A stretch of 46,736 nt of DNA from the sequence record MN158208.1; one strand, given 5' to 3'. The notes under the pieces were generated by a model. The model was not told where the DNA came from, ran no database searches, and worked only from the letters and a program-made list of their open reading frames with translations. The translations under genes and the position numbers were made by a program. Shown here piece by piece: positions 7,670 to 30,486 of this stretch (its first letter is position 1; each line of letters opens with the position of its first letter). The DNA is from Escherichia phage BEK6.

Positions 7670-7675
7670 TAAATC

Positions 7676-7698
7676 GCCCTCTTCGGAGGGCTTTTTTT
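7676..7698 (+). terminator. rho-independent terminator after the major capsid gene
   Basis: GCCCTC-ttcg-GAGGGC followed by TTTTTTT. Confidence 0.65.
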
Positions 7699-7762
7699 AC
7701 GTCTGTACCAAATGGAATTGTTGGGTTATAATCACTCAATAAGATAAACAAAGGAGACAAAA

Positions 7763-8008: not shown

Positions 8009-8013
8009 CAAAC

Positions 8014-8036
8014 AGGGCGCTTCGGCGTCCTTTATT
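8014..8036 (+). terminator. rho-independent terminator
   Basis: AGGGCGC-ttcg-GCGTCCT followed by TTTATT. Confidence 0.5.
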
Positions 8037-8049
8037 GTATGGAGCTAAT

Positions 8050-8451: not shown

Positions 8452-8819
8452 ACTACAACGAAATCGAATCAATCACTCGCTCTGGCATTAACTTCTTTAG
8501 TGATGCCAATGGCGTTTATGAAATGAGTACTGGTGATGGATATGTTGAAATCGTTAACGGCGTTGAAGTTGAAGTTCCTTCGCAAACATTTCAGCTAAAA
8601 GGCTTGGTGCGAGAAATCAAGACGCGAGATATCGATGGCGAGTTTATCCAGTTTGGCGATAAGCGCGGAATCTTCACGGCACAGGTGGAAATTAAGCATG
8701 GTTATCAGATTAAGGTTGATGGTGAGACTTTCGTTGTTGTTGACCCGCGACCTGTAAAACCAGCCGGCACAGTTGTTGGTTATAGACCGATTCTTCGTAG
8801 GGTGGCTACTTATGGCTAG
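8448..8819 (+). CDS. putative head-tail joining protein
   Basis: ORF overlapping the upstream stop (start ATG 8448 or earlier at 8436); function from position only. Confidence 0.35.
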   Translation: MNYNEIESITRSGINFFSDANGVYEMSTGDGYVEIVNGVEVEVPSQTFQLKGLVREIKTRDIDGEFIQFGDKRGIFTAQVEIKHGYQIKVDGETFVVVDPRPVKPAGTVVGYRPILRRVATYG

Positions 8820-9261
8820 TTTTATACCGAAGGCTAATGGCGGGGTTATTGAATTTAGCCGCTCTATCTCTGAGTGGATAGATAAGGTTGAGTCTGGAGT
8901 TGAAGAGGTTGTTGCAGGAACCATTATCAATACAGCCAAGGGTCTGGTAGATCAGTCACCGGTTGACACTGGTAGATTTAAAGCCAACTGGCAAATAACA
9001 GCAAACTCACCGGCGCAACAATCAGTAATTGATTATGATAAGGTCGGGACCGAGACAAAAAGAGCTCTTGCAAGACAGGCTAGAGCAGTGGCTAGAGCAA
9101 AGGGAACGAAAGTTATTTACATAACAAACAGGCTTGATTACTCAATACATCTTGAGTATGGCGGATCAGGTCAGGCGCCGAACGGCATTATTAGGATTGT
9201 TCAGATGCGGCTTGGTAGATACTTCCAGGAAGCGGTAGAGGAGGCTAAACGTGCACTATGA
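8812..9261 (+). CDS. HK97 gp10-like neck / tail-component protein
   Basis: Motif PVDTGRFKANWQ characteristic of HK97 gp10-family proteins; ATG 8812 overlaps the upstream stop. Confidence 0.55.
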   Translation: MASFIPKANGGVIEFSRSISEWIDKVESGVEEVVAGTIINTAKGLVDQSPVDTGRFKANWQITANSPAQQSVIDYDKVGTETKRALARQARAVARAKGTKVIYITNRLDYSIHLEYGGSGQAPNGIIRIVQMRLGRYFQEAVEEAKRAL

Positions 9262-9652
9262 ATTATCTATAGCTGCCAGAAAATATGTTAATGATTTACT
9301 GGTGAACAAGTTCCCTGTCAGATATCCTATCTCTTGGGAAAACGTTGCTTTCACCCCTCCAGCAGACGGCTCTATCTGGCTAAAGTATGACTACATAGAG
9401 GTTGACACCGTAACCTACGGACTAAGCAGAAAGTGCAAATACTATGTAGGAATGGTGCAGGTTTCTGTTTTCTTCAGTCCAGGCACTGGCATTGATAAGC
9501 CTAGACAAATCGCTAATCAATTGGCAGAATCTATCGTTGATGGTACAATGCTTGACAGCGGGACCATTTACGAGTCTGGAGTTGTTAACCCGGTTATCAA
9601 ATCCAAGTCTGGGTGGTTTATCCCGGTTCATTTTTATGTTCGTCTAGACTAA
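9251..9652 (+). CDS. putative tail terminator / tail completion protein
   Basis: 133-aa ORF, GTG start with GAGGAGG RBS; position immediately upstream of the major tail gene. Confidence 0.4.
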   Translation: MHYELSIAARKYVNDLLVNKFPVRYPISWENVAFTPPADGSIWLKYDYIEVDTVTYGLSRKCKYYVGMVQVSVFFSPGTGIDKPRQIANQLAESIVDGTMLDSGTIYESGVVNPVIKSKSGWFIPVHFYVRLD

Positions 9653-9667
9653 CAAAAGGAAAAATAC

Positions 9668-10324
9668 ATGGCTCATTTATCAAATGGCACGCAGGTCTTC
9701 GTAGAAGGATCTCGCGGAACTGCAATTAACGTAACTGCAATCTCTAACGCAGATAAACCAGTTTTAACCGTATCTAGCGCATCTGACCTGGCTAAGGGTG
9801 ACTACCTTCTGTTTACCGCCTCCAGCTCAACCCTACTTAGCGACAAGCACGTGAGAGTAACTGAAGTTTCTGGCACTTCGGTAACAGTTGAAGGTATTGA
9901 TACCTCCAACACCACTAAGTTCCCTGCTGGCTTAACTGGTGAAGTTGTTAAGATTACTTCATGGTTCGAAGTCCCGTGTGTTCAGTACGTATCTACTGAC
10001 GGCGGCGAACAGCAGTTTGTTAACTTCCAGTGCCTTTCTGATGACCGCGAACAGCAGATTCCGACTTATAAATCTGCGGTAACAAACACCTTCACCTTTG
10101 CTCACGAGTACACCAACCCGGTCTATCCGGTTCTGCGTAAGTACGATGAGTCTGGCCAGGTTGTTGCAATTCGTCTGTTCGTACCTCGCGCTCAGGAAAT
10201 GCGTTTGCAGTCCGGCACTATCGCTTTCAACGACACCCCTACCATTGGTGTTAACGAAATCGAAACGGTATCCATCGCTGTATCCATTCGTGGCCGCCTG
10301 TCATCTGTGGCAGCTGAAGTTTAA
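9668..10324 (+). CDS. major tail protein
   Basis: 218-aa ORF with AAAAGGAAAAA RBS followed by a strong terminator (10331-10356); located before the chaperone/tape-measure genes. Confidence 0.6.
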   Translation: MAHLSNGTQVFVEGSRGTAINVTAISNADKPVLTVSSASDLAKGDYLLFTASSSTLLSDKHVRVTEVSGTSVTVEGIDTSNTTKFPAGLTGEVVKITSWFEVPCVQYVSTDGGEQQFVNFQCLSDDREQQIPTYKSAVTNTFTFAHEYTNPVYPVLRKYDESGQVVAIRLFVPRAQEMRLQSGTIAFNDTPTIGVNEIETVSIAVSIRGRLSSVAAEV

Positions 10325-10330
10325 AACACA

Positions 10331-10356
10331 AACCCTCTTCGGAGGGTTTTTTATTG
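10331..10356 (+). terminator. rho-independent terminator after the major tail gene
   Basis: CCCTC-ttcg-GAGGG followed by TTTTTTATT. Confidence 0.65.
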
Positions 10357-10357
10357 C

Positions 10358-10375
10358 ATAGCACTTTTTGATAAA
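10358..10375 (+). promoter_or_regulatory. gene-boundary palindrome copy (ATAGCACTTTTTGATAAA) with -10-like TATAGT 22 bp downstream
   Basis: TTGATA ends 10373, TATAGT 10396-10401, CATCGAAACGAAA 10407-10419, ATG 10435. Confidence 0.5.
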
Positions 10376-10434
10376 GCACTTATTCAGTTTTGCTGTATAG
10401 TTAACTCATCGAAACGAAATGGGGGAATTAAGAG

Positions 10435-10683
10435 ATGAATAACGTTAAAAACATTATCAAACTTACTGCGGTTCTGGTTGCTTTTTATGCGGTAGTTCAG
10501 ATTGTTAACCCAACTGGCGAGGCTGATGCAAATAGCAAGGCAAACAAATATACTGTTGAATTTTCCAAGGCTTATCGAGCATGTCAGGAGCTTGTGGGTG
10601 GTAAGGTTGACCAAATAATGAAATATGGCAAAGAGGTTTGTAAGGACTCAGCCGCTAAGATTGCAAAAGAAAACACTAAGTAA
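10435..10683 (+). CDS. small secreted/membrane protein (moron)
   Basis: 82-aa ORF with hydrophobic N-terminus (IIKLTAVLVAFYAVVQIV); preceded by its own palindrome / -10-like / CATCGAAACGAAA leader module. Confidence 0.5.
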   Translation: MNNVKNIIKLTAVLVAFYAVVQIVNPTGEADANSKANKYTVEFSKAYRACQELVGGKVDQIMKYGKEVCKDSAAKIAKENTK

Positions 10684-10721
10684 TAGAATACATACTCATA
10701 AACAATAAGGGGATCAACAAA

Positions 10722-11036
10722 ATGGCTAAATTCAAACTTTCACTGTCGGCACTTCCTGACTTTAAGCTGCCGGTAAAATTCAAGCTGGCTAACGACCAGG
10801 ATGTAGAGGTTATCTTTACAGTAAAGCATAAGAAAACATCTGAGCTTCAGGAATTGCTTAATAAAGAAGGACTGAGCACCAAAGAACTCATCATGGCAAT
10901 TGCTTCTGATTGGGATTTGGAGGAAGAATACAACGAGGATAACGTTAATGAGTTCTCCGACCTGTTCCCGGCCTCAACCGTTGCACTTACTACCGCTTAT
11001 ATGCAGGCACTGGCAGGCCAGCGGGTAAAAAACTAA
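10722..11036 (+). CDS. tail assembly chaperone (gpG-like)
   Basis: 104-aa acidic ORF directly upstream of the tape measure gene, ending at a slippery A_AAA_AAC. Confidence 0.6.
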   Translation: MAKFKLSLSALPDFKLPVKFKLANDQDVEVIFTVKHKKTSELQELLNKEGLSTKELIMAIASDWDLEEEYNEDNVNEFSDLFPASTVALTTAYMQALAGQRVKN

Positions 11037-11356
11037 AGAGGGCGGTGTATCTACAGTACCAGTCAGAGCCAACTGATGCCGAACTGGAAGCTATTGGGAT
11101 GCGCCGCTCTGATTACGAAGACGAAGAGCCTGAAGTTTTACACTTCGACGACAACATGATGAAGGCTTGGGACATTTATTGTTCAATGGCCACGCAATGG
11201 AGGGTTGGAGCTAACGGACCTACAGGGTTAGATTACAACGTGCTAAATTTCCTCTTTAGAGTGTATAATGTCTCAGAAGAAGAATTGGTGCTCAGTGATT
11301 TACGCATCCTTGAAGCTAAGGCTCTCGAGATGATGGATAATCTGAGAAAAAAATAA
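10722..11356 (+). CDS. tail assembly chaperone, predicted -1 frameshift product (gpGT-like)
   Basis: Heptamer A_AAA_AAC at 11027-11033 in the zero frame, 1 nt before the G stop; the -1 frame is open through 11356. Confidence 0.45.
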
Positions 11357-11376
11357 CCCGCTTCGGCGGGTTTTCT
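11356..11376 (+). terminator. hairpin + T-run before the tape measure gene
   Basis: ACCCGC-ttcg-GCGGGT followed by TTTTCT. Confidence 0.5.
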
Positions 11377-11391
11377 ATTATGGAGGCTTAG

Positions 11392-14370
11392 ATGGCAACA
11401 AATGAATTAGCCGGAATTACACTAGCCGTAGACGTCTCGCAGGTAGATAGAGGTACACAGTCCCTGCAGAAGTTCAGACAGGCAAACCAGCAGGCCGCTT
11501 CCGGCATTAGTGAGTTCGTCAACGCCGAGCAGGTTGCAAAGAATCAAGCCAGAGACACAGCTCGCGCACTTGCTGAACAGCAAGCATCTTTAGCTAAATT
11601 GCAAACAGCTATTGACCCAACTGCGGCAAAGTTCCGTAAGCTGCAAGAGGCAGCGGTAGGTCTTGATAAGGCATTCGCGGCTGGCGTGGTTCCTGATGAG
11701 GAGTTTTTCCGCTTAGGTGAGGCGCTTGAAACGCAGAGCGCAAAGCTTGCTCGCTCACGTGCGGCGCTAACTGAAGAGGGAAGGGCGGCGGCACAGGCTG
11801 CAAAGGATAAAGCAAAAGCAAAGGCTGAAGCTGATAGATTCATTGCATCACTTGAGCGTCAGGCTCAGGCGGCGACATTGACGAGAGAGGAGTACCTAAA
11901 GCTACAAGCGGCCCAGCTTGGAGTTAGTTCCCAGGCTGCGCCCATCATTGACAGAATCGCCGATGCATCACAGAAGGCAAACACCCAGCTAATTGCTCAA
12001 AGCAAGGCCTTTCAACGCTCTGGCTTAAGCGCAGGTCAATACAAGGCTGCAATCTCTCAATTGCCAGCGCAGATTACAGATATTGGGACATCACTTGCTG
12101 GCGGCATTCCGATTTGGCTTATTGCAATTCAGCAAGGCGGACAAATTAAGGATGCATTTGGAGGTATTGGTAACACATTTAGGTTTGCGCTTGCTGCTTT
12201 AAACCCGTTCAACGTAGCAGTTGGTGTTCTCGGTGGCGCTCTTGTTGCTTTAGGCGTCGGTGCTGCGCAGGCTGAAAGTGAATTCAGGGCGTTAAACTCT
12301 GCCATTGCGTTCTCAAACAACTCCACAATCGCATCAATCTCGCAGGTTAGAGAGTTGGTTAGCTCTGTTTCTGATGCTACTGGCGCAACCAGAGGGCTTG
12401 TGACTAGCATCGCAACAAGCCTTATTGAGCAAGGGAACCTTACACTGACGCAGATTGACAAGATTACCAAATCAACCGCCAGATGGGCGCAGTTGACAGG
12501 TAAGGATGCGAAGGAGATTACTGGTTACTATAACCAGATTGCAAGCGACCCAATCCAGGGTTTAGTTGACTTGGATAAGCGATTTAACTTCCTCACGCAG
12601 GGGCAATTGACGACAATCGAAAGATTGAGAGAGACTAGGGGTGAGGTTGAAGCTGTTACCGCCGCGATTGATATTTTCAGCAAGTCACAGGAAGCTAACC
12701 TTAACGACATAGCTGCGCAGTTAACTCCACTTGAGTTGGCCTGGAATGATTTTAGAAAGTACATCTCTGATATCTGGGATGCAATTAGTCGTAGAACGGT
12801 TGGGGCGCTGAACTTGTTTGTTGACGTAATAGCAGGAACAATTGAGCAAATCAGGGTCTTCCTTAACAGCGGTGACGTGCTGATTGGTGAATTCGTAATT
12901 AGCTCAATTCAGGCGTTGCAGAACATACCTGGTCTTGATGGTGTCGGTGATGACGTTATCAAGGCTCAGCGGGAGATTATCGATGCAGCTAAGAAGAATA
13001 ACCTTGAGCTAGAAAAGTCTATCAGGGAGCGAGACGCTAGAATAAGAAAAGGAGAAATGGGTTACGTTACTCGCAGAGAGAATCAGAATACCAATGAGCA
13101 GCCAGGCACGGATGAGGAGTTTGCAAAGAGGAAGAAGGCGCTTCAGGATGAGCTTGACGCGATTAAGAAGAACAGGAAAGAGGAAAATGGGAGGGTTAAG
13201 GAGCAAAGGGATTTAACAATTGGTTACGAATCTGGCGTGCTGGCACTTCAGGCTCAACTCAAGGTTCTTCAGGAAAATAGGGATATTGGCGCATTAATAA
13301 GTAATGAGCGCAAGCAGTATCTTCAAGAGGAGGCTAAATTCAGGATTCTTGAGCAGAGGCAACTTGATGGCTCAATTACCAAAGAGCAGGCAAGACTTCT
13401 CATTGAAAAGGATAAAGTTCTTGCACTCGCAAGTCAGAAAGCTGAGTTAGGCGATCAGATTGTTTTGCAGGAGCGTGCCAATAAGTTAGCTGAAGATAAC
13501 CGCAAAAAGATTCTTCAGATTAACAATGAGGCAAGCAATATTAATTTTGGGGCTGGCCTGTCTTCTCGGGAACAGCAGAGGGCAAGAGAGATCCAGGCTC
13601 TTCAGTCAAATCAGGTTAATGCTGGCGGCTCTCTTGATGATGTTGATTTCCAGCAGTTACTTGAAGCGAGAAAGGAATACTACAAGCAGGAGGATAATCT
13701 TAGGTCAGACTGGCAATCTGGTGTAACATCCACTCTCGCCGACTTGACAGAGAAATATACAGACTACAACCAGATTGCTAAGGACTTAACCGTTGCGGCA
13801 TTTGACGGGATTACAGAGCAAATTACAAACCTTGTAACCACTGGTGAGACGAACTTTAGGGAGTTCACAACAAGCATCCTGAAAATGATTGCGAAGATTG
13901 CAACTCAATTGCTTTTAGTTAAGGCCATCGAATCAACACTAACTAGTTTTGGTGGTGGTGGAGGTAACGCGTTTGGCTCATTTGCATCTGCTATGGGGTT
14001 CGCTGGCGGCGGCTACACTGGTGATGGTGGAAAATATCAGCCAGCAGGAACGGTACACCGTGGTGAGTTTGTATTCACAAAAGAAGCGACTAGCAGAATT
14101 GGCGTGAAAAACCTTTATGCGCTAATGAAGGGTTACGCAAACGGCGGTGCTGTTGGTGGTCCATCTGGTTATGCTAATGGCGGCTTGGTTTCTGGTGGGT
14201 CAAATGTTAATGTTAGTGGCATCACCGTTAACGTAAGCTCGGGTTTTGGTAGCGACCCAGAACAGGCTAAGGCATTGCAAAGTGGAGTCAAGGCTATCGT
14301 AGCGGAAGAGATTGCTCAGTCTTTCCAGCAGGGCGGCCGTGCGTATGCTTACCTTCGCGGATTCAACTAA
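11392..14370 (+). CDS. tail tape measure protein
   Basis: 992-aa ORF, GGAGG RBS, long Ala/Gln/Glu-rich coiled-coil regions and Gly-rich C-terminus; canonical position after G/GT. Confidence 0.85.
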   Translation: MATNELAGITLAVDVSQVDRGTQSLQKFRQANQQAASGISEFVNAEQVAKNQARDTARALAEQQASLAKLQTAIDPTAAKFRKLQEAAVGLDKAFAAGVVPDEEFFRLGEALETQSAKLARSRAALTEEGRAAAQAAKDKAKAKAEADRFIASLERQAQAATLTREEYLKLQAAQLGVSSQAAPIIDRIADASQKANTQLIAQSKAFQRSGLSAGQYKAAISQLPAQITDIGTSLAGGIPIWLIAIQQGGQIKDAFGGIGNTFRFALAALNPFNVAVGVLGGALVALGVGAAQAESEFRALNSAIAFSNNSTIASISQVRELVSSVSDATGATRGLVTSIATSLIEQGNLTLTQIDKITKSTARWAQLTGKDAKEITGYYNQIASDPIQGLVDLDKRFNFLTQGQLTTIERLRETRGEVEAVTAAIDIFSKSQEANLNDIAAQLTPLELAWNDFRKYISDIWDAISRRTVGALNLFVDVIAGTIEQIRVFLNSGDVLIGEFVISSIQALQNIPGLDGVGDDVIKAQREIIDAAKKNNLELEKSIRERDARIRKGEMGYVTRRENQNTNEQPGTDEEFAKRKKALQDELDAIKKNRKEENGRVKEQRDLTIGYESGVLALQAQLKVLQENRDIGALISNERKQYLQEEAKFRILEQRQLDGSITKEQARLLIEKDKVLALASQKAELGDQIVLQERANKLAEDNRKKILQINNEASNINFGAGLSSREQQRAREIQALQSNQVNAGGSLDDVDFQQLLEARKEYYKQEDNLRSDWQSGVTSTLADLTEKYTDYNQIAKDLTVAAFDGITEQITNLVTTGETNFREFTTSILKMIAKIATQLLLVKAIESTLTSFGGGGGNAFGSFASAMGFAGGGYTGDGGKYQPAGTVHRGEFVFTKEATSRIGVKNLYALMKGYANGGAVGGPSGYANGGLVSGGSNVNVSGITVNVSSGFGSDPEQAKALQSGVKAIVAEEIAQSFQQGGRAYAYLRGFN

Positions 14371-14400
14371 TTAACGGGGCTTCGGCCCCTAAGGATTTTT

Positions 14401-14751
14401 ATGGCTATTGACACATTTACCTGGTGCACTCAGATACAAAATGGAGGTGCTGCATTTTCCAACACAAACAACGTGCGAATTGTTAGCTTCGGTAATGGTT
14501 ACGAACAGCGCGGAACGGGAGGATACCGCAGCAACAAGCGCAGTTATCAGATGACTTACACTAACGAGGACTGGCGCGATGTGATGGACTTTTGCTTCAA
14601 CCACATCATTACTCCATTTTTCTGGACTACGCCGCAGGGCGATACATCCATGTTTGTTATTCAGCAGGATAGCATTAGCGTAACACCGCTAAGCAAGCAG
14701 ATTCAGACTGTAAGCATGCAATTCGTAGAAGTATTTAGTTCAATGCGTTAA
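14401..14751 (+). CDS. minor tail protein (lambda gpM-like)
   Basis: 116-aa ORF immediately after the tape measure gene; size/position as lambda M. Confidence 0.55.
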   Translation: MAIDTFTWCTQIQNGGAAFSNTNNVRIVSFGNGYEQRGTGGYRSNKRSYQMTYTNEDWRDVMDFCFNHIITPFFWTTPQGDTSMFVIQQDSISVTPLSKQIQTVSMQFVEVFSSMR

Positions 14752-14755
14752 ACTA

Positions 14756-14776
14756 AGCCCCATTAGGGGCTTTTTT
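14756..14776 (+). terminator. hairpin + T-run between M-like and L-like genes
   Basis: AGCCCC-atta-GGGGCT followed by TTTTTT, then TTGGAGAAAATC-ATG. Confidence 0.55.
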
Positions 14777-14789
14777 ATTGGAGAAAATC

Positions 14790-15545
14790 ATGTTAAGTCC
14801 AAAGTTTGAAAATCAGCTGCAAAGCCTTTTCCCTGGCGAGATTGTGACACTAATCCAGGTTGACGGAACCTCCTTCGGAAGTCTCGTTTACAACTTCCAC
14901 AATGAGAACATTTCATACACGCCAGAAGAGATTATGCTGTCCCAGATGAATGGGGAGCCACTACCAGAGAAGACTATTACATTTCGCGGTGAAGAGTATG
15001 GTCCTAGACCTTTCGGTATCTCGGGCATCAATATGACTTCTGACGGCAAGGCAAACAAAGTAACGCTAACAGTATCAAACGTGGACCAGCGTATCAGTGC
15101 CTTGATTCGCACTTACAATGGATTAGTCAAGGCTAAGGTTACTATCTGGATTACCACACGTGATAACATCAATGAAGATGGAAGTATTGCTGATGGTGAC
15201 TATCGCCGATTTGTTTACTTCATTGAGCGACCTAAGCAGGTTGATTACAAAACTGCGTCATTTGAGCTTAGTAGCCCGATGGATATGGATGGCATTTATA
15301 TCCCGGCGAGACTTGTTCAGTCTGTTTGCTATTGGGCTTCACGTGGCTGGTATCGTAGCGGGAATGGTTGCGACTACGCTGGTAATCGTTACTTTGACAA
15401 GGATGATAACCCAGTATCAGACCCTTCATTAGACTTCTGCGCCGGAACGGTTAATAGCTGTAAAATTAGATTTGGTGAGAATAATCAGCTTTCATTTGGT
15501 GGATGCGCGGCAGCAAGCCTTCAAGCTAAAGCAAATCAGAGCTAA
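14790..15545 (+). CDS. minor tail protein (lambda gpL-like)
   Basis: Cys-containing C-terminal region (CYWASRGWY...GNGCDYAGN...DFCAGTVNSC) like the gpL Fe-S motif; GGAGAAAATC-ATG start after a terminator. Confidence 0.7.
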   Translation: MLSPKFENQLQSLFPGEIVTLIQVDGTSFGSLVYNFHNENISYTPEEIMLSQMNGEPLPEKTITFRGEEYGPRPFGISGINMTSDGKANKVTLTVSNVDQRISALIRTYNGLVKAKVTIWITTRDNINEDGSIADGDYRRFVYFIERPKQVDYKTASFELSSPMDMDGIYIPARLVQSVCYWASRGWYRSGNGCDYAGNRYFDKDDNPVSDPSLDFCAGTVNSCKIRFGENNQLSFGGCAAASLQAKANQS

Positions 15546-15563
15546 ATAGCACGAATTGCTAAA
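15544..15563 (+). promoter_or_regulatory. gene-boundary palindrome copy AAATAGCACGAATTGCTAAA
   Basis: Overlaps stop of the L-like gene; TATAGT at 15584-15589 exactly 22 bp after TTGCTA. Confidence 0.5.
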
Positions 15564-15618
15564 CGATGAAGCCATGGATGGCGTATAGTTACTTCACACA
15601 AACGAGAGGGGTTAAAAA

Positions 15619-15981
15619 ATGTTCTACATTAAATTTAACGGATACAAAAAAGATAAAGAAGAATGCGAAGGTTTATTTTCTGTTGGTGAAACTTACGCCT
15701 GCGATGTTGTTGACTCGGGTAGGTACTATCAGGTTAGGGATGATGATGGTAAAACTGTAAAATTTAGCAGCATGCTCCATGATAGTTATTACAGCTTTTC
15801 ACGAGTTCATATTGAGGAAGATAGCTTAACTTTGATCAAATATGCGCGTGATGGAGAAATGAAATATCGAATGAATGGTGTTGATGTTACTAAGTCATTC
15901 TTTGAGGATAAGCTTCGTGAAGTTGAGTTACTTAAATCAAGAGGTGTTTCTGTGTTTGTAGATTTTGAGGTTAGTTTTTAA
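15619..15981 (+). CDS. hypothetical protein (moron between L-like and K-like genes)
   Basis: 120-aa ORF preceded by palindrome (15544-15563) / TATAGT (15584-15589) / leader module and followed by strong terminator 16005-16030. Confidence 0.5.
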   Translation: MFYIKFNGYKKDKEECEGLFSVGETYACDVVDSGRYYQVRDDDGKTVKFSSMLHDSYYSFSRVHIEEDSLTLIKYARDGEMKYRMNGVDVTKSFFEDKLREVELLKSRGVSVFVDFEVSF

Positions 15982-16004
15982 TAAACGAGATTAGTGTTAA
16001 ACTG

Positions 16005-16030
16005 GGTCAATCGAGAGATTGACCTTTTTT
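16005..16030 (+). terminator. rho-independent terminator after the moron at 15619
   Basis: GGTCAATC-gaga-GATTGACC followed by TTTTTT, then TTGGAGATAAA-ATG. Confidence 0.6.
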
Positions 16031-16042
16031 ATTGGAGATAAA

Positions 16043-16801
16043 ATGTTAACACCAAAAGTTAAACTGGAAATCTTCCAGCACGCAAAGGAAGCTTACCCGC
16101 ACGAATGTTGTGGGGTAGTGACCCAGAAGGGTCGTGCCCAGAAGTATCACAGAATCACAAATGCCAGCAAAGACCCTGAGAATGAGTTCATCCTTGATTC
16201 GAATGAGTATGCCGACATTGCATTTAATCTGGTTGATAACGAGTCAATTGTTTATGTAGTTCACTCACACACTGGTGATGGTGCAACAACAAGACCTAGC
16301 CCTGCGGATACATGTAGCTGTAATGAATGCGAGATTCCTTATGTAATTGTCAGCATTCCAGAGGGCGATATGCGCATCCTTGAACCTTCAACCATGCCAC
16401 TGATTGGCCGCCCGTGGGGTCTTGGAAGCTTTGATTGCTGGGGGCTAGTGATGAGTTTTCACAAGAAATACGGTGTCAAACTGAATGACTACCGAGTTAA
16501 TTACCCGTGGTGGGAGAAACGGTACAATGAAAATATCTATGACGACAACTGGATTAAGGAAGGATTTGAGCTGGTAAAAACTTCAGACATCCCGGTTGGC
16601 TCAATGATTATGATGCAGGTGCAGAGTGAGGTAACAAACCACGCTGGAGTATACATTGGCAACAACAGATTCATTCACCATCTTTATGGTAAAATGAGTT
16701 CCATTGATATCTATTCCGATTACTGGCGAGAGCGTACAGTGCGGATCGTTCGCCATAAAGATTTACCAGAGGATGTAAATTATGACCCAGAAACTGATTG
16801 A
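16043..16801 (+). CDS. tail tip assembly protein (lambda gpK-like, MPN/JAB + NlpC/P60-type)
   Basis: HSHTGDGATTRPSPADT JAB/MPN-like metal motif plus C-terminal Cys/His hydrolase-like region; GGAG RBS before ATG 16043. Confidence 0.7.
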   Translation: MLTPKVKLEIFQHAKEAYPHECCGVVTQKGRAQKYHRITNASKDPENEFILDSNEYADIAFNLVDNESIVYVVHSHTGDGATTRPSPADTCSCNECEIPYVIVSIPEGDMRILEPSTMPLIGRPWGLGSFDCWGLVMSFHKKYGVKLNDYRVNYPWWEKRYNENIYDDNWIKEGFELVKTSDIPVGSMIMMQVQSEVTNHAGVYIGNNRFIHHLYGKMSSIDIYSDYWRERTVRIVRHKDLPEDVNYDPETD

Positions 16802-17354
16802 TATTAAGTTAGGCCTGTCTCTAGGCCGTAAGTTTGGCAAGATTCACCAGATGGCAGTGAATAGCGTTCCCGAGGCTATGCGAGCACTATGCTCACAGAT
16901 TCCAGCATTCAAAGAATTCATGAACAGTCATGTCGGTCAGAACACAAGATACGCCGTGTTCGTTGATGGCAAAAATGTGAATGAGCATCGAATCTCTGAT
17001 TTTAGTGCCGTTCAGGAGATACGCATCTTACCAATCCCTCAAGGCCGTAAGTCTGGCGGGCTTTTTCAGACTATTTTAGGCGCCGCTCTTATCACGGTTG
17101 GCATCTTTACCGGGCAGATTTATCTTGTTGGCGCTGGCGTATCTTTGGCAGCGGGTGGTATTGCCCAGCTACTTTCACCTCAAGCAACTGGATTAAAGAC
17201 TCAGGACAACCAAACAAGCAACAGAGCATCTTACGCATTCGGCTCCGCAGTAAACACGGTTGCCGCTGGATATCCAGTTTGCCTACCTTATGGTTATCGA
17301 ACGGTTGGCGGCTCTGTGTTTAGTGCTGGCAGTTATTCCGAGGATATCGCTTAA
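16782..17354 (+). CDS. tail assembly protein (lambda gpI-like)
   Basis: 190-aa ORF overlapping the K-like gene end, hydrophobic Gly/Ala-rich C-terminal half; position between K and J homologs. Confidence 0.55.
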   Translation: MTQKLIDIKLGLSLGRKFGKIHQMAVNSVPEAMRALCSQIPAFKEFMNSHVGQNTRYAVFVDGKNVNEHRISDFSAVQEIRILPIPQGRKSGGLFQTILGAALITVGIFTGQIYLVGAGVSLAAGGIAQLLSPQATGLKTQDNQTSNRASYAFGSAVNTVAAGYPVCLPYGYRTVGGSVFSAGSYSEDIA

Positions 17355-17362
17355 ATATCATA

Positions 17363-17384
17363 CCCGCCTAGTGCGGGTTTTTTA
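17363..17384 (+). terminator. hairpin + T-run before the J-like gene
   Basis: CCCGC-ctagt-GCGGG followed by TTTTTTATTT. Confidence 0.5.
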
Positions 17385-17395
17385 TTTAGTGTAGA

Positions 17396-20300
17396 ATGGC
17401 ACAAATGATCAAAACAAACATGAGGCTTTGTGATATGGCTGAAGATATTAAGATTTATGGTGCTAAAGGCGGTAGCCAGAAGCCGCACCAACCAGTGGAA
17501 CAAGAAGACAACCTGATTTCATTAAACAAGGTTAAGGTGTTACTTGCGGTTGCTGACGGCGAGGTGGATTCAAACTTCTCAATGAAGGATTTATACCTTG
17601 CTGACGTTCCTGTGCAGAACCAGGATGGTAGCTACAACTACGAAGGTGTTCGCGCTGAGTTCCGTGCTGGCACGCAGTATCAGGACTATATCGCTGGGCT
17701 TGATGGTGCCAACTCAGAGATTCAGGCATCCAGAGAGATCACGAACGATACACCGTATATCATCGCGGTTAACAATACTCAGCTATCGGCGATTCGTGTA
17801 AAGCTATACTGGCCTAGACTGGTTAAGCAAGAAAGCAATGGAGATCTGAACGGAACAACCTGCGAGTATGCAATTGACCTTTCTGTTAATGGTGGCGCTT
17901 ACCAGGAATATACTCGAGGAGTTGCTAACGGGAAGACAACTACAGGTTACGACCGCAGCATTCGTGTAAACCTTCCGGCTGAATTTGATAGCGCATTGGT
18001 TCGCATCAGAAAGATTACGCCAGATTCAACAAGTAGCACATTGGTTAACGGGATGCAGATTACAACCTATCAGGAAGTGATTGACGCTAAATTCCGCTAT
18101 CCGCTTACGGCTCTGGTTTATGTTGAGTTTGGATCTGACCTTTTCCCTAACGGAATACCGACAATCTCTATCAAGAAGCGCTGGAAGCTGATTCAGGTCC
18201 CAACCAACTACGACCCGGAAACAAGAACTTACAGCGGAACATGGAATGGACTGTTCAAAATGGCATGGTCAAATAACCCAGCCTGGGTTCTTTATGACTT
18301 AGTGACAAACCGTCGCTATGGCCTTGATCAACGAGAGTTGGGCGTGGAGATTGATAAGTGGGGATTGTATGAAGCCGCGCAATTCTGTGACCAGATGGTG
18401 CCAGATGGAAAAGGTGGAATGGAGCCGCGCTACCTGTGCGATATGGTTGTACAGAATAAGGTTGAGGCCTACACGCTAATTCGTGATATCTGCTCAATCT
18501 TCCGTGGCCTGACTTTCTATGACGGCGAAAAGATTGGTATTGTGGTTGATAAGCCACGCAACCCATCATACATCTTCACGAATGATAACGTTGTAAACGG
18601 ATTATTCAGCCGAACTTTTGCCAGTGATAAGAGCCTTTACACTACGGCAAACGTTCAGTTTGATGATGTGGAGAACAACTATCAGCAGGATGTTGAGCCA
18701 GTTTTCGAGCTCGAGGCTACTCGTCGATTCGGATTCAACCCAGTCGACCTTACGGCGATTGGGTGTACTCGCAGAAGTGAAGCAAACAGACGTGGCAGAT
18801 GGCTCCTGAAAACCAACCTGAGAAGCGAAACTATCAGCTTCACTACCGGGTTGGAAGGCATGATTCCGATGATTGGAGAGGTTATTGCGGTTAATGACGC
18901 GGCATGGTCCAGCAACTATCAGTTAAACCTTTCCGGTCGTATTGAATCAGTTCAGGGATTGCAGGTTTTTACCCCGTTTAAAGTTGACGCAGCGCCAGGT
19001 GACAGAATTCTTCTGAACAAACCCGACGGAAGTCCAGAAGCAAGAACTATTGCCAGCGTTTCGGAAGATGGTAGAACAATCAACCTGAATACTGCTTTTA
19101 GCTTTGTAGCTCAACCTGATACTGTGTTCGCAATTGATAAGGACAATCTTGCTCTTCAGCAATATGTTGTGACCGGGATTCAAAAAGCAGATTCTGATGG
19201 ATCGGATTCATTCCAGTATACGATTACAGCAGTGGAGTACGACCCGAACAAGTATGACGAGATTGATTACGGCGTTAACATTGTTGACCGCCCAACTTCA
19301 ATCGTAGAGCCTGACAGATTATCGCCACCAGAAAACCTGACGGTATCAAGCTACAGTAAGGTTGTTCAGGGTTTATCAGTTGAGACGATGGTTATCGGAT
19401 GGGATAAGGCTCCATACGCTAAAACATACAATGTTCAGTGGAGGAAAGAAAATGGCAACTGGATTAACGTACCAAGAACGGCAAGTACAGAGGTTGATAT
19501 CGAAGGTATTTACGCAGGAATCTATGACGTTAGGGTTCGCAGCGTATCAGATACTGAAAACGTGTCTGCCTGGTCTGATATTGTAACGGTATCGCTAACT
19601 GGCAAGATTGGCCGCCCATCGGCGCCTACGGTTATCACGGCGTCAGCTGATGAGGTATTTGGCATCCGTGTTAAATGGGGATTCCCTGATGGCTCTGGTG
19701 ATACTGCTTACACTGAGCTTCAGCAGGTTCCTGATAATGGCGATGGTACTTACAATCCTGATAACGCAAGTTTGCTGACTTTACTGCCTTATCCAGCCTA
19801 TGAATACTGGCACACGCCAATTCAGCCAGGAAAGGTTATCTGGTATCGCGCAAGATTGATTGACAGAATCGGTAACACATCTGATTGGTCTAATTTCGCA
19901 AGAGGCATGAGTACTGACGACGCCAACATTATCAATGATTACATCAAGGTTGATATTGAGGCTTCGGAAGGATTCAAATACCTCGAGCAGAATGCGATTC
20001 AAAAGAATCAGGACATTCAGAATCAGGCAGAGTCAATTCTTGAGAATGCATTAGCTAATGATGCAGACGTTCGCCGCATGACCAAGGAGAACGGCAAGCG
20101 TAAGGCTGAATATGTTCAGGCAGTTAATCTCATAGCCGATGAAACTCAGGCTCGTGTAGAGGCTCTAACAGCCCTTAAAGCGCAGATAGATGATGAAGTT
20201 GTAGCATCGATTACAGAAGTTCAGACAGCGCTAGCCACCGAGACAGAAGCAAGGACTACTGCAGACACTGCTCTATCAGCAAGATTGGGTGATAACGAGG

Positions 20301-20806: not shown

Positions 20807-20836
20807 AACAAAAGCCCCGAAAGGGGCTTTATATTT
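20805..20836. terminator. bidirectional terminator between convergent J-like and 314-aa genes
   Basis: GCCCC-gaaa-GGGGC flanked by an A-run upstream and T-rich sequence downstream. Confidence 0.6.
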
Positions 20837-21779
20837 AATACATATCAGGAAGGTAAGGAAGTGGCGTTGATATTGTTACGTCAGGCCTATTTCCTATCTC
20901 GTATCTGACAATCCTTGAGCCCGTGCCAGATCTAACATACCCGTTGCTCATTACAATTCCTTTGTTTCTCAACTCCTTATATGCTCGTATTGCCCTTGTG
21001 TTAAATCCACATCTGAGTATTGGGAAGTAGGATTCGCCAATGTATTGATTGCTACCTGATAGGTTTATGAATCCAGAAACAACCAATGGCCTTGTTAAAG
21101 TTGAAAGCGTGCAAATCCCATTAGAGTTAAATATGTTCAAGCCTGGGCCCGGAGTTGGAGCGACCATCTGGAAGATAATCAAATCCATAGTGACGCTTCC
21201 TGGTGTATCACCAGTATCTTCAGTATTTATGTTTGTACATATCAGTTGGTTGCTACCGTTGTATTCAACTGAAACGCCTGGGTTGCTCCACTTTCCAAAT
21301 GGTATACCATAAATTGGCAGTGTGTATGTGTTGGTGAAAGATATTCTCTGAGCAAACTTGCATACTAATAGCCTGTCAGTGGTGGTTATAGAAGTAAAGT
21401 CAGTACTGTCAGCAACGTAAATACCCTGGCCTGTAGATGCTCTTAGTACCTCAACAACAGTACCAGAAAATTGAGTTATACGGTCAGAATATCCATTCTC
21501 ATAGCCAATCGATATTGTTCCGCTTGATGCCGTTGATGAGAATCCATTTATGTAGTAAATCTCAACGCCCCTATCAAGTTCGAATGAGTATGCGCCATTG
21601 TTAGGGATAAGGAATCTTGACGCTCCCTCATTGCCCTGAATTGGAAAAGTCTTGCTAAACCCACCGCTAGAAACGTTGAAATTGCCAGCGAAATTCAATG
21701 CCCGCATCCCTGCGGTTATTGTCATTGGCTTCCTTCCGTCATTTAGGTCTATATAAATACCCTGAGCCATTAATTCCAC
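20835..21779 (-). CDS. hypothetical protein, candidate receptor-binding / tail-associated protein
   Basis: 314-aa Gly/Ser/Thr/Asn-rich ORF, GGAG RBS, co-oriented with and overlapping the upstream lipoprotein gene; function inferred by analogy with RBP-lipoprotein pairs. Confidence 0.4.
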
Positions 21780-22000
21780 TCCTTAGAGCCATGATCACGA
21801 ACAGAGCCACTGGGGCCTTTAATACCATCGTAGCGCACGTCAATTTCACCAGCTGGTACAACCATGCCACTTTTCCATTTAGCTACGCACACGCCGTTTG
21901 AGGACGTTGCACACCAACCATCCGGGCGAGGACCAGAAGAACAACCAACTGCCATGATTACTACTAATGCGATGATTGCCGATTTGATTAAGTTATTCAT
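21770..22000 (-). CDS. small lipoprotein, Cor/Llp-like superinfection-exclusion candidate
   Basis: 76 aa; N-terminal signal peptide ending IMAVGC (lipobox-like) then Cys-containing mature part; AAGGA RBS and its own palindrome/-10/leader module. Confidence 0.5.
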
Positions 22001-22066
22001 TTTTAAATCCTTAGTAAGTATGTTTCGTTTCGATGAAGTAATAGTATCGCATCCCTGCGATCAGTG

Positions 22067-22086
22067 TTTAGCAATTAGTGCTATTT
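22067..22086 (-). promoter_or_regulatory. gene-boundary palindrome copy (AAATAGCACTAATTGCTAAA on minus strand)
   Basis: Overlaps stop of the Rha-like gene; minus-strand TACTAT 22 bp downstream and CATCGAAACGAAAC leader before the lipoprotein gene. Confidence 0.5.
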
Positions 22087-22734
22087 CTTTTCCAGCAACA
22101 TCTTAATGTCAATGCCTAGCTCATTCTCAATTAATCCAGTCAGTGCATCGGCTTTTTCTTTAAGGGCAAAACACTGCGCTTCATACTTAAATCTTTCCTC
22201 CATCTCATTCGAGCGACTAGCCCAACACTGGCGAGCCTCACAAGCCAGCATATCGAGTTTTTCATCGGTATTCTTATCCATGAGTAAGATCTCATTTATT
22301 CTTTGCTCTGCAACAATGCGCTGGCTCAGGTGTGCATTTTGCGCATTAGCCACACCAAGCATCATTCGCGCCTCTTTTAACTCATCAATGCTTACCATCT
22401 GGCTGATCACTTCTGCTTGTTTTTTAACTAATGCCTCAAGCTCATGAAGTCGACGGATAACCCTGTGACGAAGAGCGACACTGTAGCCAGTGATTAGCGT
22501 TTCGGTGAGTTCCTTGTTGAGTAAAACCTCAGATGTATAGCCGCGACTGTCCGTAAGTACTTGATAATCATCATGACCCAAATCTGGGGCATCGTTATAA
22601 TGTAACAATTCATTGATCATTTCCTTTGTGTCGCGAACTACGTGATCATGACGCTTACCTGTCAATTCAGCAATTTCCTTCGTGCTCATCATGGTTTTTT
22701 GCTGTTCTTTGTACACTTTAATGTTCATTTTCAT
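22081..22734 (-). CDS. Rha-family regulatory (antirepressor-like) protein
   Basis: N-terminal motif STKEIAELTGKRHDHVVRD matches the Rha signature; first gene of the minus operon leaving the 22.7-23.3 kb control region. Confidence 0.5.
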   Translation of the reverse strand: MKMNIKVYKEQQKTMMSTKEIAELTGKRHDHVVRDTKEMINELLHYNDAPDLGHDDYQVLTDSRGYTSEVLLNKELTETLITGYSVALRHRVIRRLHELEALVKKQAEVISQMVSIDELKEARMMLGVANAQNAHLSQRIVAEQRINEILLMDKNTDEKLDMLACEARQCWASRSNEMEERFKYEAQCFALKEKADALTGLIENELGIDIKMLLEKK

Positions 22735-22825
22735 CTCTCTTTGTTTTTGCGCTACCGATTTTCGGTATCACAAGCAGCACCATTGCCGCCATGCGCCTAA
22801 ATATACCTAAAGATATCCAGTTGTC

Positions 22826-22845
22826 TTTAGCAAATAGTGCTATTT
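22826..22845 (-). promoter_or_regulatory. palindrome copy (AAATAGCACTATTTGCTAAA on minus strand) upstream of the Rha-like gene
   Basis: Minus-strand TATATT (forward 22800-22805) 22 bp downstream; about 70-nt leader to ATG 22734. Confidence 0.45.
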
Positions 22846-22966
22846 ATAGCCAATTTCACCACAAATCACAGTTACACGTAACCGATGTAACTCGATGTAT
22901 ACAATCTCATCCGCGGAAAATGATATACGCCCTGTTACGCCAATTTACGCATTAGTTACATTAAAA

Positions 22967-23030
22967 TATCTATATATATCAACATTTTACTCTTATTATT
23001 ATTATTATATATATTACTGTGTATATCATG
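22967..23030. repeat. AT-rich repeat element with (TTA)n tract, copy A
   Basis: ATATCTATATATATCAACATTTTACTCTTATTATTATTATTATATATATTACTGTGTATATC; near-identical copy at 41828-41896. Confidence 0.7.
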
Positions 23031-23255
23031 TAACTACTTCTATAGAGTGTTCCGGTTATAATTTTAATATCATGTGGATTTATACAGTATTGCGTGACAG
23101 CTATACCAATGCACCCCCCCCTGCAAGAAACGGTATACACGATATACACGATGGTTACATTGAGCTATGGCTGGGCTGAGATGCCATTTTACGTAACTAG
23201 TGGCAACACCTACACGGAATTACAAGGATTCACGCGTAAGTTTAAATCAATCTGC

Positions 23256-23284
23256 TTGACATCAATGCGGATTAGTTGTACTAT
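23256..23284 (+). promoter_or_regulatory. candidate sigma70-type promoter for the HNH gene / plus-strand early operon
   Basis: TTGACA (23256-23261), 17-bp spacer, TACTAT (23279-23284). Confidence 0.5.
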
Positions 23285-23314
23285 CAATTAAACAAAACAG
23301 CGGAGGGCTTATTT

Positions 23315-23806
23315 ATGGAATGGGGAGACATCTTTGAATACAGCAACGGAAAGCTTTACTGGAAGATAAGACCAGCAATGAGGATGAGGGTTGGCGACCT
23401 TGCGGGGACGGAATGTAAGGGTTACATTCAAGTTAACTGCAAAGCCAAATCGGGGGTAAATAAACTATATAGGGCGCATAGGATTGTATGGGAAATGCAT
23501 CATGGACCAATACCAGAAGGGGTAGTTATCGACCACATTAATGGGAATGGTCTAGACAACAGGATTGAGAACCTAAGAGTGGTTACGCAAGCAGATAATC
23601 AGAAGAACAAGAAGGTTGGTAAAAACAATGAAAGTGGTGTTCTTGGTGTTGCTTGGTATAAGCCTAGTTCGAAGTGGGTCGCTAGAATATCTAAGGATGG
23701 GAAGTGGTCACATATTGGGTATTTCGATAATTTCGAGGATGCCGTAAGAGCTAGGCGAGAAGCTGAATTAGAATTCAAATATCACGAAAATCACGGGAGA
23801 CGTTAA
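23315..23806 (+). CDS. HNH homing endonuclease with AP2-like DNA-binding domain
   Basis: HNH motif (YRAHRIVWEMHHGPIPEGVVIDHINGNGLDNRIENLR) followed by GVLGVAWYKPSSKWVARI...GYFDNFEDAVRARREAE; GGAGGG RBS, TTGACA-17-TACTAT promoter upstream. Confidence 0.7.
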   Translation: MEWGDIFEYSNGKLYWKIRPAMRMRVGDLAGTECKGYIQVNCKAKSGVNKLYRAHRIVWEMHHGPIPEGVVIDHINGNGLDNRIENLRVVTQADNQKNKKVGKNNESGVLGVAWYKPSSKWVARISKDGKWSHIGYFDNFEDAVRARREAELEFKYHENHGRR

Positions 23807-23807
23807 A

Positions 23808-24002
23808 ATGACCTACTACATTATCAAAGAGAAAAACAACGCACTATTCGGCGACTGCTACTTTGGTGGCCCTGCCGGATACACAACGAATAAGAACGAG
23901 GCAGACCGATTCGAGACTAAAGAAGAAGCCAGAGATGTACTGACCGGTTACTTCACTGAGGAAGATTTGAAATCGTTTAAGATTGTTAAGGTTAAGGATT
24001 GA
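23808..24002 (+). CDS. hypothetical protein
   Basis: 64-aa ORF tightly packed after the HNH gene. Confidence 0.4.
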   Translation: MTYYIIKEKNNALFGDCYFGGPAGYTTNKNEADRFETKEEARDVLTGYFTEEDLKSFKIVKVKD

Positions 24003-29982: not shown

Positions 29983-30456
29983 TTACTCTTTAGCTTTTCG
30001 TGCTGCTTCGTTAGCGGCCTTAATTTTGCGCCAGGAGCGACACTCCGGCTTGGTGGCTAACTCAGCCTCAGTAACCACACGCAGCATGTGGCGTTTTTTG
30101 CATCGTAGAGTTAGCGGCTTTCCGTTGCCATCGAATTGTAGATCTGGTCGGCAGAATGTAGCTCGAAAACCTTCTCCGGTTCGTTTGTAGTAGTTGTGCG
30201 ACAACTGAGCGCCACGCGCAGAAATCATACCACGCTTAAACCATTCTTCTACAGCCTGTGGTGTTACCTTTAACTGCTTTGCGATATTAGCCTTTGTGCC
30301 AAAGAAATCAAGGAGCATCTCAAGACGTGCTCGTAGCCCGGCCCTTACTTCATCTTTTAAAACGTAGTAACCTGAGGGTCGTTTTCGCTGTTTTTTGTCT
30401 TCAGTGCGGACTGTTCCGTTGTTGCCGTTAATGGTTCGCTTGTCTACTTCATTCAT
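29983..30456 (-). CDS. putative HTH DNA-binding protein
   Basis: 157-aa basic protein with helix-turn-helix-like segment GTKANIAKQLKVTPQAVEEWFKRG; first gene of the minus-strand primase operon. Confidence 0.4.
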   Translation of the reverse strand: MNEVDKRTINGNNGTVRTEDKKQRKRPSGYYVLKDEVRAGLRARLEMLLDFFGTKANIAKQLKVTPQAVEEWFKRGMISARGAQLSHNYYKRTGEGFRATFCRPDLQFDGNGKPLTLRCKKRHMLRVVTEAELATKPECRSWRKIKAANEAARKAKE

Positions 30457-30466
30457 TTGTCACCTC

Positions 30467-30486
30467 AATAGCATTTATTGTTAAAA
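30467..30486 (+). promoter_or_regulatory. degenerate palindrome copy (AATAGCATTTATTGTTAAAA) in the primase/helicase divergent region
   Basis: TGgTATTAT extended -10-like element about 20 bp downstream, upstream of helicase ATG 30557. Confidence 0.4.

Follow-up and report, generated by a model that had tools for sequence, protein, structure and literature searches.

Which receptor does a small siphophage use when three minus-strand genes follow its tail-tip gene J, and do these genes act as one unit? We considered this question for Escherichia phage BEK6 (MN158208.1). The window, as we call it below, is the whole 46,736-nucleotide (nt) stretch, a nearly complete genome. BEK6 is a virulent Rtp-like siphophage related to T1 (Drexlerviridae, Braunvirinae), and its gene order is collinear with that of phage Rtp across almost all of the window. 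An earlier note, made from the sequence alone, had described three minus-strand open reading frames (ORFs) following a J-like gene and a bidirectional terminator. All of these elements are in place, with the ORFs at 20835..21779 (314 amino acids (aa) from GTG), 21770..22000 (76 aa) and 22081..22734 (217 aa). The three proteins match curated families at E = 3e-118, 1.5e-35 and 6e-9, respectively, so the pattern is not due to chance. We consider it very likely that the first two genes encode a receptor-binding protein (RBP) targeting LptD and its cognate superinfection-exclusion (SE) lipoprotein, and that the third, Rha-like gene is a separate optional unit. The homology, the predicted fold, the lipobox, the gene coupling, the module copies and the presence or absence of the Rha cassette were computed here. 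The LptD binding and the exclusion mechanism are taken from the literature on relatives. The features are listed in Table 1.

Table 1. Position of the locus, of its control elements and of related features in the BEK6 window
Feature	Position	Strand	Remark
Predicted RBP, most likely 311 aa, DUF6453, Rtp44 orthologue	20835..21770	-	predicted terminal receptor: LptD of the LptDE translocon
Predicted SE lipoprotein, 76-aa precursor, Rtp45 orthologue	21770..22000	-	coupled to the RBP gene via TAATG
Rha-domain protein, 217 aa, accessory gene	22081..22734	-	contains STKEIAELTGKRHDHVVRD
Promoter-like module copy before the lipoprotein gene	22010..22087	-	nhmmer 57 bits, E 5e-17
Diverged module copy before the Rha-like gene	22775..22849	-	nhmmer 40.6 bits, E 6e-12
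J-like central tail-tip protein, 1136 aa	17396..20806	+	Pfam, PHROG, Rtp43 orthology
Bidirectional intrinsic-terminator-like hairpin	20811..20830	both	between the convergent J and RBP genes
Module copies, plus-strand starts	10355, 15543, 25194, 28934 (partial), 33191, 33525, 43235, 44051, 44715, 45441	+	
Module copies, minus-strand starts	22087, 22849, 37578 (weak), 37739, 38121, 40901, 41548	-	
Rtp52 homologue, helix-turn-helix regulator	30031..30456	-	tblastn 96.5% identity to Rtp52

The Predicted Receptor-Binding Protein and Exclusion Lipoprotein of BEK6

The largest of the three proteins matches PF20051 (DUF6453) with 394.7 bits against a cut-off of 25. Residues 7-294 align to positions 1-290 of the 291 in the profile, and the family is present in 51 of 51 database homologues of the protein. 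A sequence search of the Protein Data Bank (PDB) with phmmer gave a sole match, chain C of 9RPT/9RPW/9RQI (E 9e-40, residues 4-314). Chain C of 9RPT is the RBP of phage Oekolampad solved bound to LptDE. We then used the AlphaFold2 model, which was built from an alignment of 18 family members (pLDDT 85.5, pTM 0.85) and has an all-beta soluble fold free of helices. In the Foldseek search of the PDB, 9rpt_C turned out to be the sole match of this model at E<=0.001 (E 4.6e-17, TM 0.81 target-normalised); the next-best fold had an E of 0.025. The protein is 80% identical to Rtp44 without gaps, with 61 residue differences. The earlier note had described it as rich in Gly, Ser and Thr, and these residues do make up 30% of it.

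The note had also given this protein 314 aa and an overlap with the neighbouring gene. The overlap exists: the RBP gene, which has its own Shine-Dalgarno sequence, shares 1 nt with the stop codon of the lipoprotein gene (TAATG). The length has to be corrected. The start is most likely the ATG at 21770, giving 311 aa, because AAGGAG lies 8 nt upstream of this ATG, the GTG falls inside that Shine-Dalgarno sequence, and Rtp44 and its BEK2 counterpart are annotated from ATG. Homologues of DUF6453 with 34-64% identity were also found on chromosomal contigs of 150-700 kb from E. coli, Salmonella, Enterobacter and Cronobacter, which suggests that prophages carry the RBP family as well.

The small protein matches PF24052 ('Phage lipoprotein family') with 121.4 bits against a cut-off of 27. 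Chain D of PDB entry 9RPS, which is Rtp45, matches it at E 1.5e-39, and 61 of the 76 residues (80%) are identical to those of Rtp45. A signal peptide with a cysteine had been noticed in this ORF before, and a rule-based check agrees with it. The check gave a type II signal with K6, an uncharged hydrophobic stretch (mean Kyte-Doolittle hydropathy 2.77) and the lipobox A-V-G-C with Cys20, followed by Ser21 at +2. The predicted mature lipoprotein has 57 aa. Cysteines are found only at positions 20, 30 and 38; the Cys30/Cys38 pair is kept in six of the six alleles compared, and the structure of Rtp45 is described as having a Cys30-Cys38 disulfide (PMC12685063). The sequence AAGGA is located 5' of the ATG. 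Thus, the idea of the earlier note that an RBP is encoded next to its cognate exclusion lipoprotein has held up: the two proteins are orthologues of Rtp44 and Rtp45 and belong to the families of 9RPT and 9RPS.

The function of the pair has been studied in relatives. Deletions in the loops of lptD block all small siphophages with this RBP module downstream of gpJ, and Rtp is stated to be evidently an LptD-targeting phage (Maffei et al., PLoS Biol 2021, PMC8594841). Cryo-electron microscopy of the Oekolampad RBP with LptDE is reported to give an interface of 1,700 Å² (Dunbar et al., PMC12685063). As described in the same work, Rtp45 on LptDE (9RPS) occupies the periplasmic face of LptD and is flanked by LptE and LptM. 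Its hairpin, which goes up the lumen of the LptD barrel, displaces the extracellular loop EL4 by up to 20 Å, and LptD in the conformation with Rtp45 bound cannot take the RBP (PMC12685063).

By analogy, the BEK6 pair would act in the following way. One promoter-like module would drive two translationally coupled genes (20835-22087, minus strand). The mature 57-aa lipoprotein would be exported and anchored to lipid via Cys20. As expected from its homology to Rtp45, it would bind LptDE from the periplasmic side, push its hairpin up the LptD lumen and displace EL4. LptD of the infected cell, and of the debris after lysis, would then be closed to LptD-using phages. The RBP would sit non-covalently on the tip of J and plug the extracellular face of LptD, which would be the terminal irreversible binding step. 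The J-like protein is thought to be the platform that carries the RBP; the literature also treats this attachment as presumed (Maffei et al., PMC8594841). We infer that the RBP allele, at 80% identity, keeps its specificity for LptD, and the expression timing is deduced likewise. The second unit (22081-22849) would be an optional cassette that has its own module and encodes a two-domain DNA-binding protein (Rha winged helix plus coiled coil). It would not be needed for the function of the RBP and the SE lipoprotein.

The Promoter-like Module and the Rha-like Gene

The earlier note had assigned the lipoprotein gene its own promoter-like module, and nhmmer found a copy of such a module there (Table 1). 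A repeat search and nhmmer showed that this element of about 75 nt is present genome-wide in about 16 copies on both strands. Its consensus consists of AAATAGCACnAATTGCTAAA, about 21 variable nt, TATAGTTAC and the leader tTCATCGAAACGAAAC; a ribosome-binding site and ATG come next. The module holds the inverted repeat TAGCA-N5-TGCTA (TAGCAC-N3-TTGCTA), a TATAGT-like -10 and the conserved leader CATCGAAACGAAA, and the variable spacer often contains a hairpin or a terminator-like stem. The copy in front of the lipoprotein gene (22087-22010) ends 10 nt 5' of the ATG. It includes the inverted repeat TAGCACTAATTGCTA (22083..22069), a weak spacer hairpin (22061..22046, -7.6 kcal/mol), the -10-like TACTAT (22046..22041) and the leader CATCGAAACGAAAC. 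The diverged copy in front of the Rha-like gene carries the inverted repeat TAGCACTATTTGCTA (22842..22828) and the -10-like TATATT (22805..22800), and a consensus scan gives AAGACA-16-TATATT in it. We also considered the palindrome ATCGCA-N4-TGCGAT (22046-22061) as an operator and rejected it, as it occurs once in the window, at chance level. It lies in the variable spacer, and a spacer hairpin of the module is the better reading.

The module is located upstream of the lipoprotein gene in Rtp (rtp45), BEK2, vB_EcoS-12210I and p111, that is, at every related locus examined, and modules also precede the Rha-like genes of BEK2, p111 and TR3. A candidate binder of the inverted repeat is the BEK6 homologue of Rtp52, which is annotated in Rtp as a putative transcriptional regulator with a helix-turn-helix motif. 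A bare copy of the inverted repeat (30469-30483) lies just upstream of the gene of this homologue, which suggests autoregulation. Reportedly, Rtp52 was proposed in 2006 by Wietzorrek to bind 10 conserved inverted repeats.

The Rha motif pointed out in the earlier note is present in the 217-aa ORF, and the protein passes the threshold of PF09669 (Phage_pRha) with 36.8 bits against a cut-off of 29.9 (residues 16-100). Since most homologues have 215 aa, the second ATG (22728) is probably the start, which gives the same length. PHROG 8235, 'anti-repressor', matches the protein at 1e-82. The match to TIGR02681 is below the cut-off (21.3 bits against 45.95) and covers residues 6-41 only; apart from this sub-threshold Rha match, the NCBIfam scan gave nothing for the RBP or the lipoprotein. 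The model of the Rha-like protein (pLDDT 79.7) shows a winged-helix-like N-terminal domain of the order helix-helix-beta-hairpin-helix, and its C-terminal part is a long coiled-coil helix at about aa 86-206 (helices 86-112 and 116-206). The sequence search of the PDB with this protein gave no match, and the fold search of the PDB with its model gave only weak MarR/winged-helix matches at E>0.1.

The Rha-like protein is a domain chimera, both domains of which are found at high identity with other partners in other Drexlerviridae phages. The N-terminal residues 1-101 share 85% identity with a DNA-binding protein of AugustePiccard that has an unrelated C-terminus. The stretch from about residue 102 to residue 217 shows 64-81% identity to proteins whose N-terminal part differs, among them the 'KilA protein' of phage CY1. 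The Rha (phi80-type), Roi (HK022) and Ant proteins have in common with the BEK6 protein the N-terminal domain of about 85 residues, whereas the BEK6 protein has a coiled coil of about 115 aa instead of a KilAC or ANT C-terminal domain. A Rha-type regulator had been called unusual for a lytic-looking genome. We found the opposite. Full-length homologues occur in 62 deposited phage genomes, and the N-terminal domain has homologues in 443 records. Most of these come from Salmonella phages, and the annotations given are Roi, Ant or DNA-binding protein. AugustePiccard, which targets LptD, also carries one. The BEK6 gene itself is located in a genome collinear with that of Rtp, whose annotation lists no integrase. 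Judging by these homologues, a Rha-domain gene in virulent siphophages is commonplace.

Are the three genes one operon, as the earlier note had proposed? Their contiguity is confirmed, and the single operon is doubtful. Compared with Rtp, window 22047-22872 is an insertion of about 826 base pairs that replaces 43 nt and holds the Rha-like gene together with its own module. Rtp does not have the Rha-like gene, yet it has the module directly upstream of rtp45. The lipoprotein-RBP pair of Dhillonvirus phiEco273 (RBP 88% identical) is likewise found without a Rha-like gene, and the Rha-like gene of TR3 adjoins a different RBP locus. In BEK2, an extra 229-aa gene with a third module is inserted between the lipoprotein and Rha-like genes, and vB_EcoS-12210I has an extra 109-aa gene upstream of Rha. 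The pair itself keeps the same place after J in Rtp, BEK2, vB_EcoS-12210I, p111 and phiEco273. Because the modules are separate and the Rha cassette is absent or relocated in relatives, two units fit better than one operon. We prefer to describe the locus as a conserved host-recognition unit of two genes, accompanied by an optional Rha cassette with a promoter-like module of its own.

The single operon would also imply that the Rha-like protein controls the lipoprotein and RBP genes or other promoter modules. The genes are indeed contiguous on one strand with just a weak hairpin between them, the Rha domain is a DNA-binding fold, and the order Rha-lipoprotein-RBP recurs in BEK, Veterinaerplatzvirus and Nouzillyvirus phages. 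However, the pair is present, and presumably expressed, in Rtp and phiEco273, both of which lack the Rha-like gene, and the lipoprotein gene has a module of its own at every locus examined; the gene inserted in BEK2 and the different neighbours in TR3 also speak against one operon. The Rtp genome has 16 copies of the module and no Rha-like gene, which indicates that the module is independent of the Rha-like protein. Since Rtp has both the pair and the modules without it, the Rha-like protein is unlikely to regulate the pair, and we consider the one-operon explanation improbable. It is conceivable, though we lean against it, that the Rha-like gene is a mobile cassette, namely a module of about 75 nt with a putative Rtp52 operator and a gene, shuffled by recombination between modules. 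In this case, the protein would act against prophages or host defences and not in phage regulation. The extra BEK2 gene with the third module, the insertion junction inside the module sequence and the hairpins in the spacers of many module copies give partial support to this idea. In T4-type phages, promoter-stem-loop elements are said to shuffle genes.

Relatives and Divergence of the Locus

We compared the host-recognition unit of BEK6 with known systems. Rtp44/Rtp45 belong to the same families as the BEK6 pair (PF20051 and PF24052), as do Bas01_0028 of AugustePiccard and its lipoprotein. The lengths of the two Rtp proteins (311 and 76 aa, aligned without gaps), the gene order, the strand, the 1-nt overlap, the place after J and the upstream module are all the same as in BEK6. 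Rtp differs in that each of its two proteins is 80% identical, in contrast to 98% for J, and in that the upstream Rha-like gene is missing. The Oekolampad RBP (Bas18, Dhillonvirus; 9RPT/9RPW/9RQI) is homologous to the BEK6 RBP over the full length and shares its fold and locus type. LptD is reported as the experimentally supported receptor of this phage (PMC8594841, PMC12685063). The difference is that only about a third of the residues of the two RBPs are identical (22% over the Foldseek-aligned columns) and that the genus and the tail backbone are not the same.

The genes of the locus have diverged from Rtp to different degrees. For J, with 98% aa identity, the synonymous divergence (dS) is 0.54 and the nonsynonymous divergence (dN) is 0.016 (dN/dS 0.029). 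For the RBP, with 80% identity, dS is about 2.0 and saturated, dN is 0.157 and dN/dS is 0.078, and for the lipoprotein, also with 80% identity, the values are 0.61, 0.123 and 0.20. At the nucleotide level, the identity to Rtp is about 90% in J and 69-80% across the RBP and lipoprotein genes. The saturated dS of the RBP points to an old, exchanged allele, and the drop of identity at the two genes fits horizontal exchange of the RBP locus (Maffei et al., PMC8594841). A replacement of the RBP allele between close relatives is also seen with OzMSK (PQ659294): the structural half (window 1-20000) is about 90% nt identical, and the RBP is about 40% identical.

It could be supposed that the RBP and the SE lipoprotein co-diversify as 'exclusion groups'. 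The pairwise identities give no support for this. Across five phages, the pairwise identities of the RBP and those of the SE lipoprotein are uncorrelated (96.5% and 80% for the window against BEK2, 80% and 80% for the window against Rtp). This argues against allele-specific pairing and fits an SE lipoprotein that acts on LptD and not on the RBP.

The RBP/SE pair is already known. It was published for orthologues in 2021 and 2025 (PMC8594841, PMC12685063), with both structures on the receptor. BEK6 adds another allele, 80% identical to Rtp44/Rtp45, and GenBank already holds BEK1-1 at 98% and the vB_EcoS series at 96%. The practical use lies in annotation: BEK6 is predicted to be LptD-dependent. 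Such a gene pair sets the host range and spares progeny phage from being wasted on infected cells and debris. LptD, an essential and conserved outer-membrane protein, attracts interest both for phage therapy and as a target of antibiotics. What remains of interest in addition is the role of the Rha/coiled-coil protein in virulent Drexlerviridae and the repeated modules as possible joints for cassette exchange.

Alternative Explanations

Several points weigh against our reading. The closest characterised relatives, Rtp44 and the AugustePiccard RBP, are 80-81% identical to the BEK6 RBP, and the fine specificity of the BEK6 protein may have shifted, given the saturated dS. PHROG 1265 labels the family as 'membrane protein; moron, auxiliary metabolic gene and host takeover'. 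No in vivo exclusion assay for Rtp45 was found in the main text of Dunbar et al.; judging from what is presented there, the SE role of Rtp45 is deduced from the structure and the genomic position, and so is the exclusion phenotype. As for expression, the sigma-70 consensus scan of 20.5-23.5 kb gave 8 sites where 8.3 were expected. None of these sites precedes the lipoprotein gene, and the scan gave neither unit a canonical sigma-70 promoter. The TTGCTA-to-TATAGT spacing in the module is 22 nt. Because of this spacing and the lack of enrichment in the scan, we only infer that the module functions as a promoter. Finally, the hairpin between the Rha-like and lipoprotein genes is weak, and read-through may join all three genes in one transcript.

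Could the RBP allele have switched to another receptor (e.g., FhuA, BtuB or YncD), so that the lipoprotein blocks that protein instead of LptD? The distance from Rtp44, the saturation of synonymous sites and the frequent horizontal exchange of RBP loci (Maffei et al., PMC8594841) would agree with a switch. However, OzMSK, which was screened on the lptD loop-deletion strains and treated as an LptD-dependent phage (Black et al., PMC13035648), has an RBP only 39-40% identical to Rtp44 and to the BEK6 RBP. With OzMSK and Oekolampad (33-40% identity) still using LptD, the use of this receptor spans far more than 20% divergence. Moreover, loci for other receptors are arranged differently, as in T1 for FhuA, and the mature lipoprotein keeps 79-91% identity throughout all RBP subclades and with Rtp45, whose structure was solved on LptDE. 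A receptor switch is thus very unlikely. It is even harder to believe that the 311-aa protein, as a membrane or 'moron' protein, is absent from the virion and that the J-like protein itself recognises the receptor. The PHROG 1265 label and the transcription of the gene against the tail genes would be in favour of this, and the original Rtp paper reportedly proposed Rtp43 (J) as the specificity determinant. Against it, the Oekolampad homologue is reported to bind LptDE directly through its large interface (PMC12685063), and the model of the BEK6 protein is a soluble beta fold without helices. In addition, J is nearly unchanged relative to Rtp43 while the RBP differs, as expected if an exchangeable RBP sets the specificity. 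The PHROG label is older than the structural work on the family. Most GenBank records (BEK, vB_EcoS, phiEco273) name the family 'hypothetical protein', and both labels are out of date.

The earlier note had also called the lipoprotein Cor/Llp-like. This is correct as a functional analogy and incorrect as a family assignment. Cor acts on FhuA. T1 Cor resembles the BEK6 lipoprotein in size (75 aa), in having a lipobox and in its place: it lies on the minus strand after the RBP genes, at the position of the T1 genome equivalent to that of the BEK6 gene. More generally, the Cor proteins of T1, phi80 and N15 are small lipoproteins of about 75 aa; in T1, which is also a member of the Drexlerviridae, the gene adjoins the RBP locus that follows J. 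T1 Cor is annotated as an exclusion or lysogenic-conversion factor. The RBP genes of T1 are on the strand of J, whereas the BEK6 RBP gene is convergent with J. Nevertheless, BLASTP of the lipoprotein against T1 Cor gave 16 identities in 45 positions with 13 gaps (29%) and E 0.004; beyond the signal peptide, only a few residues match. Against PF24052, T1 Cor scores 17.7 bits, under the cut-off that the BEK6 protein passes widely. For Llp, the Pfam scan of the lipoprotein gave no Llp-type family match, and the PDB sequence search at E<=1 returned no Llp chain, only Rtp45 and two spurious dehydratases, with the presence of Llp in the PDB copy being assumed. Since the likeness to T1 Cor is limited to the signal peptide, T1 Cor is below the cut-off and there is no Llp match, the lipoprotein is, as far as these comparisons go, an analogue and not a homologue of Cor/Llp. 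With the orthologue Rtp45 reported on LptDE and not on FhuA (PMC12685063), we give next to no credence to the idea that the BEK6 protein belongs to the Cor or Llp family proper and inactivates FhuA.

An LptD-directed exclusion lipoprotein would still follow the same logic as the T5 system, and a structural study of T5 covers superinfection exclusion by Llp (PMC9586334). In the T5 pb5/Llp pair on FhuA, a small tail-tip RBP is likewise combined with a periplasm-facing lipoprotein that disables the receptor (PMC9586334, PMC12685063). No sequence relationship of the T5 pair to the BEK6 pair was detected in the Pfam and PDB sequence searches. The receptor of T5 is the TonB-dependent transporter FhuA, in contrast to the LptDE predicted for BEK6. 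The mode of exclusion is also described as different: Rtp45 displaces EL4 sterically via the barrel lumen, whereas Llp acts by long-range allostery of the FhuA type (PMC12685063).

Neighbouring Genes and Sequence Elements

The J-like protein upstream of the locus was recognised from Pfam (FNIII-A_GpJ 5e-39, Phage_Tail_Tip 5e-35, Phage-tail_3 1e-16) and is assigned to PHROG 31, 'central tail fiber J'. The stop codons of the J and RBP genes are convergent and 28 nt apart, and the terminator hairpin is located inside this gap. It has a perfect GC-rich stem of 8 base pairs, five of which are GC, with a 4-nt loop and a folding energy of -14.4 kcal/mol. The hairpin is terminator-like on both strands, with TGTTTT lying 3' of it on the minus strand. 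At the nucleotide level, BEK1-1, OzMSK and others are about 90% identical to the structural half of the window, and BEK2 and BEK3 are about 91% identical to the three-gene region. The Rfam search of 20-24.5 kb gave no RNA family, and PADLOC, used on the three proteins to look for a defence role, gave no matches.

Two further observations concern the surroundings of the locus. An HNH endonuclease ORF (23276-23806, plus strand; Pfam HNH_3, 1.5e-22) lies within window 23094-24002 and is flanked by matches to the N-terminal (23133-23249) and C-terminal (23799-23969) parts of rtp46. Judging by these matches, either rtp46 would have been split by insertion of a homing endonuclease, or the annotation of rtp46 would be an over-extension across two small genes. 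An AT-rich element, AATATCTATATATATCAAC-TTTTACT-(TTA)n-TATATAT, is present in two copies, 22943-23032 and 41805-41902, with a core of about 75 nt that is nearly identical. Both copies are located in gene-poor stretches with diverging transcription, and the copy at 41805-41902 lies about 200-300 nt inward of the point that corresponds to the left end of the Rtp genome. This element could be an origin or a regulatory region.

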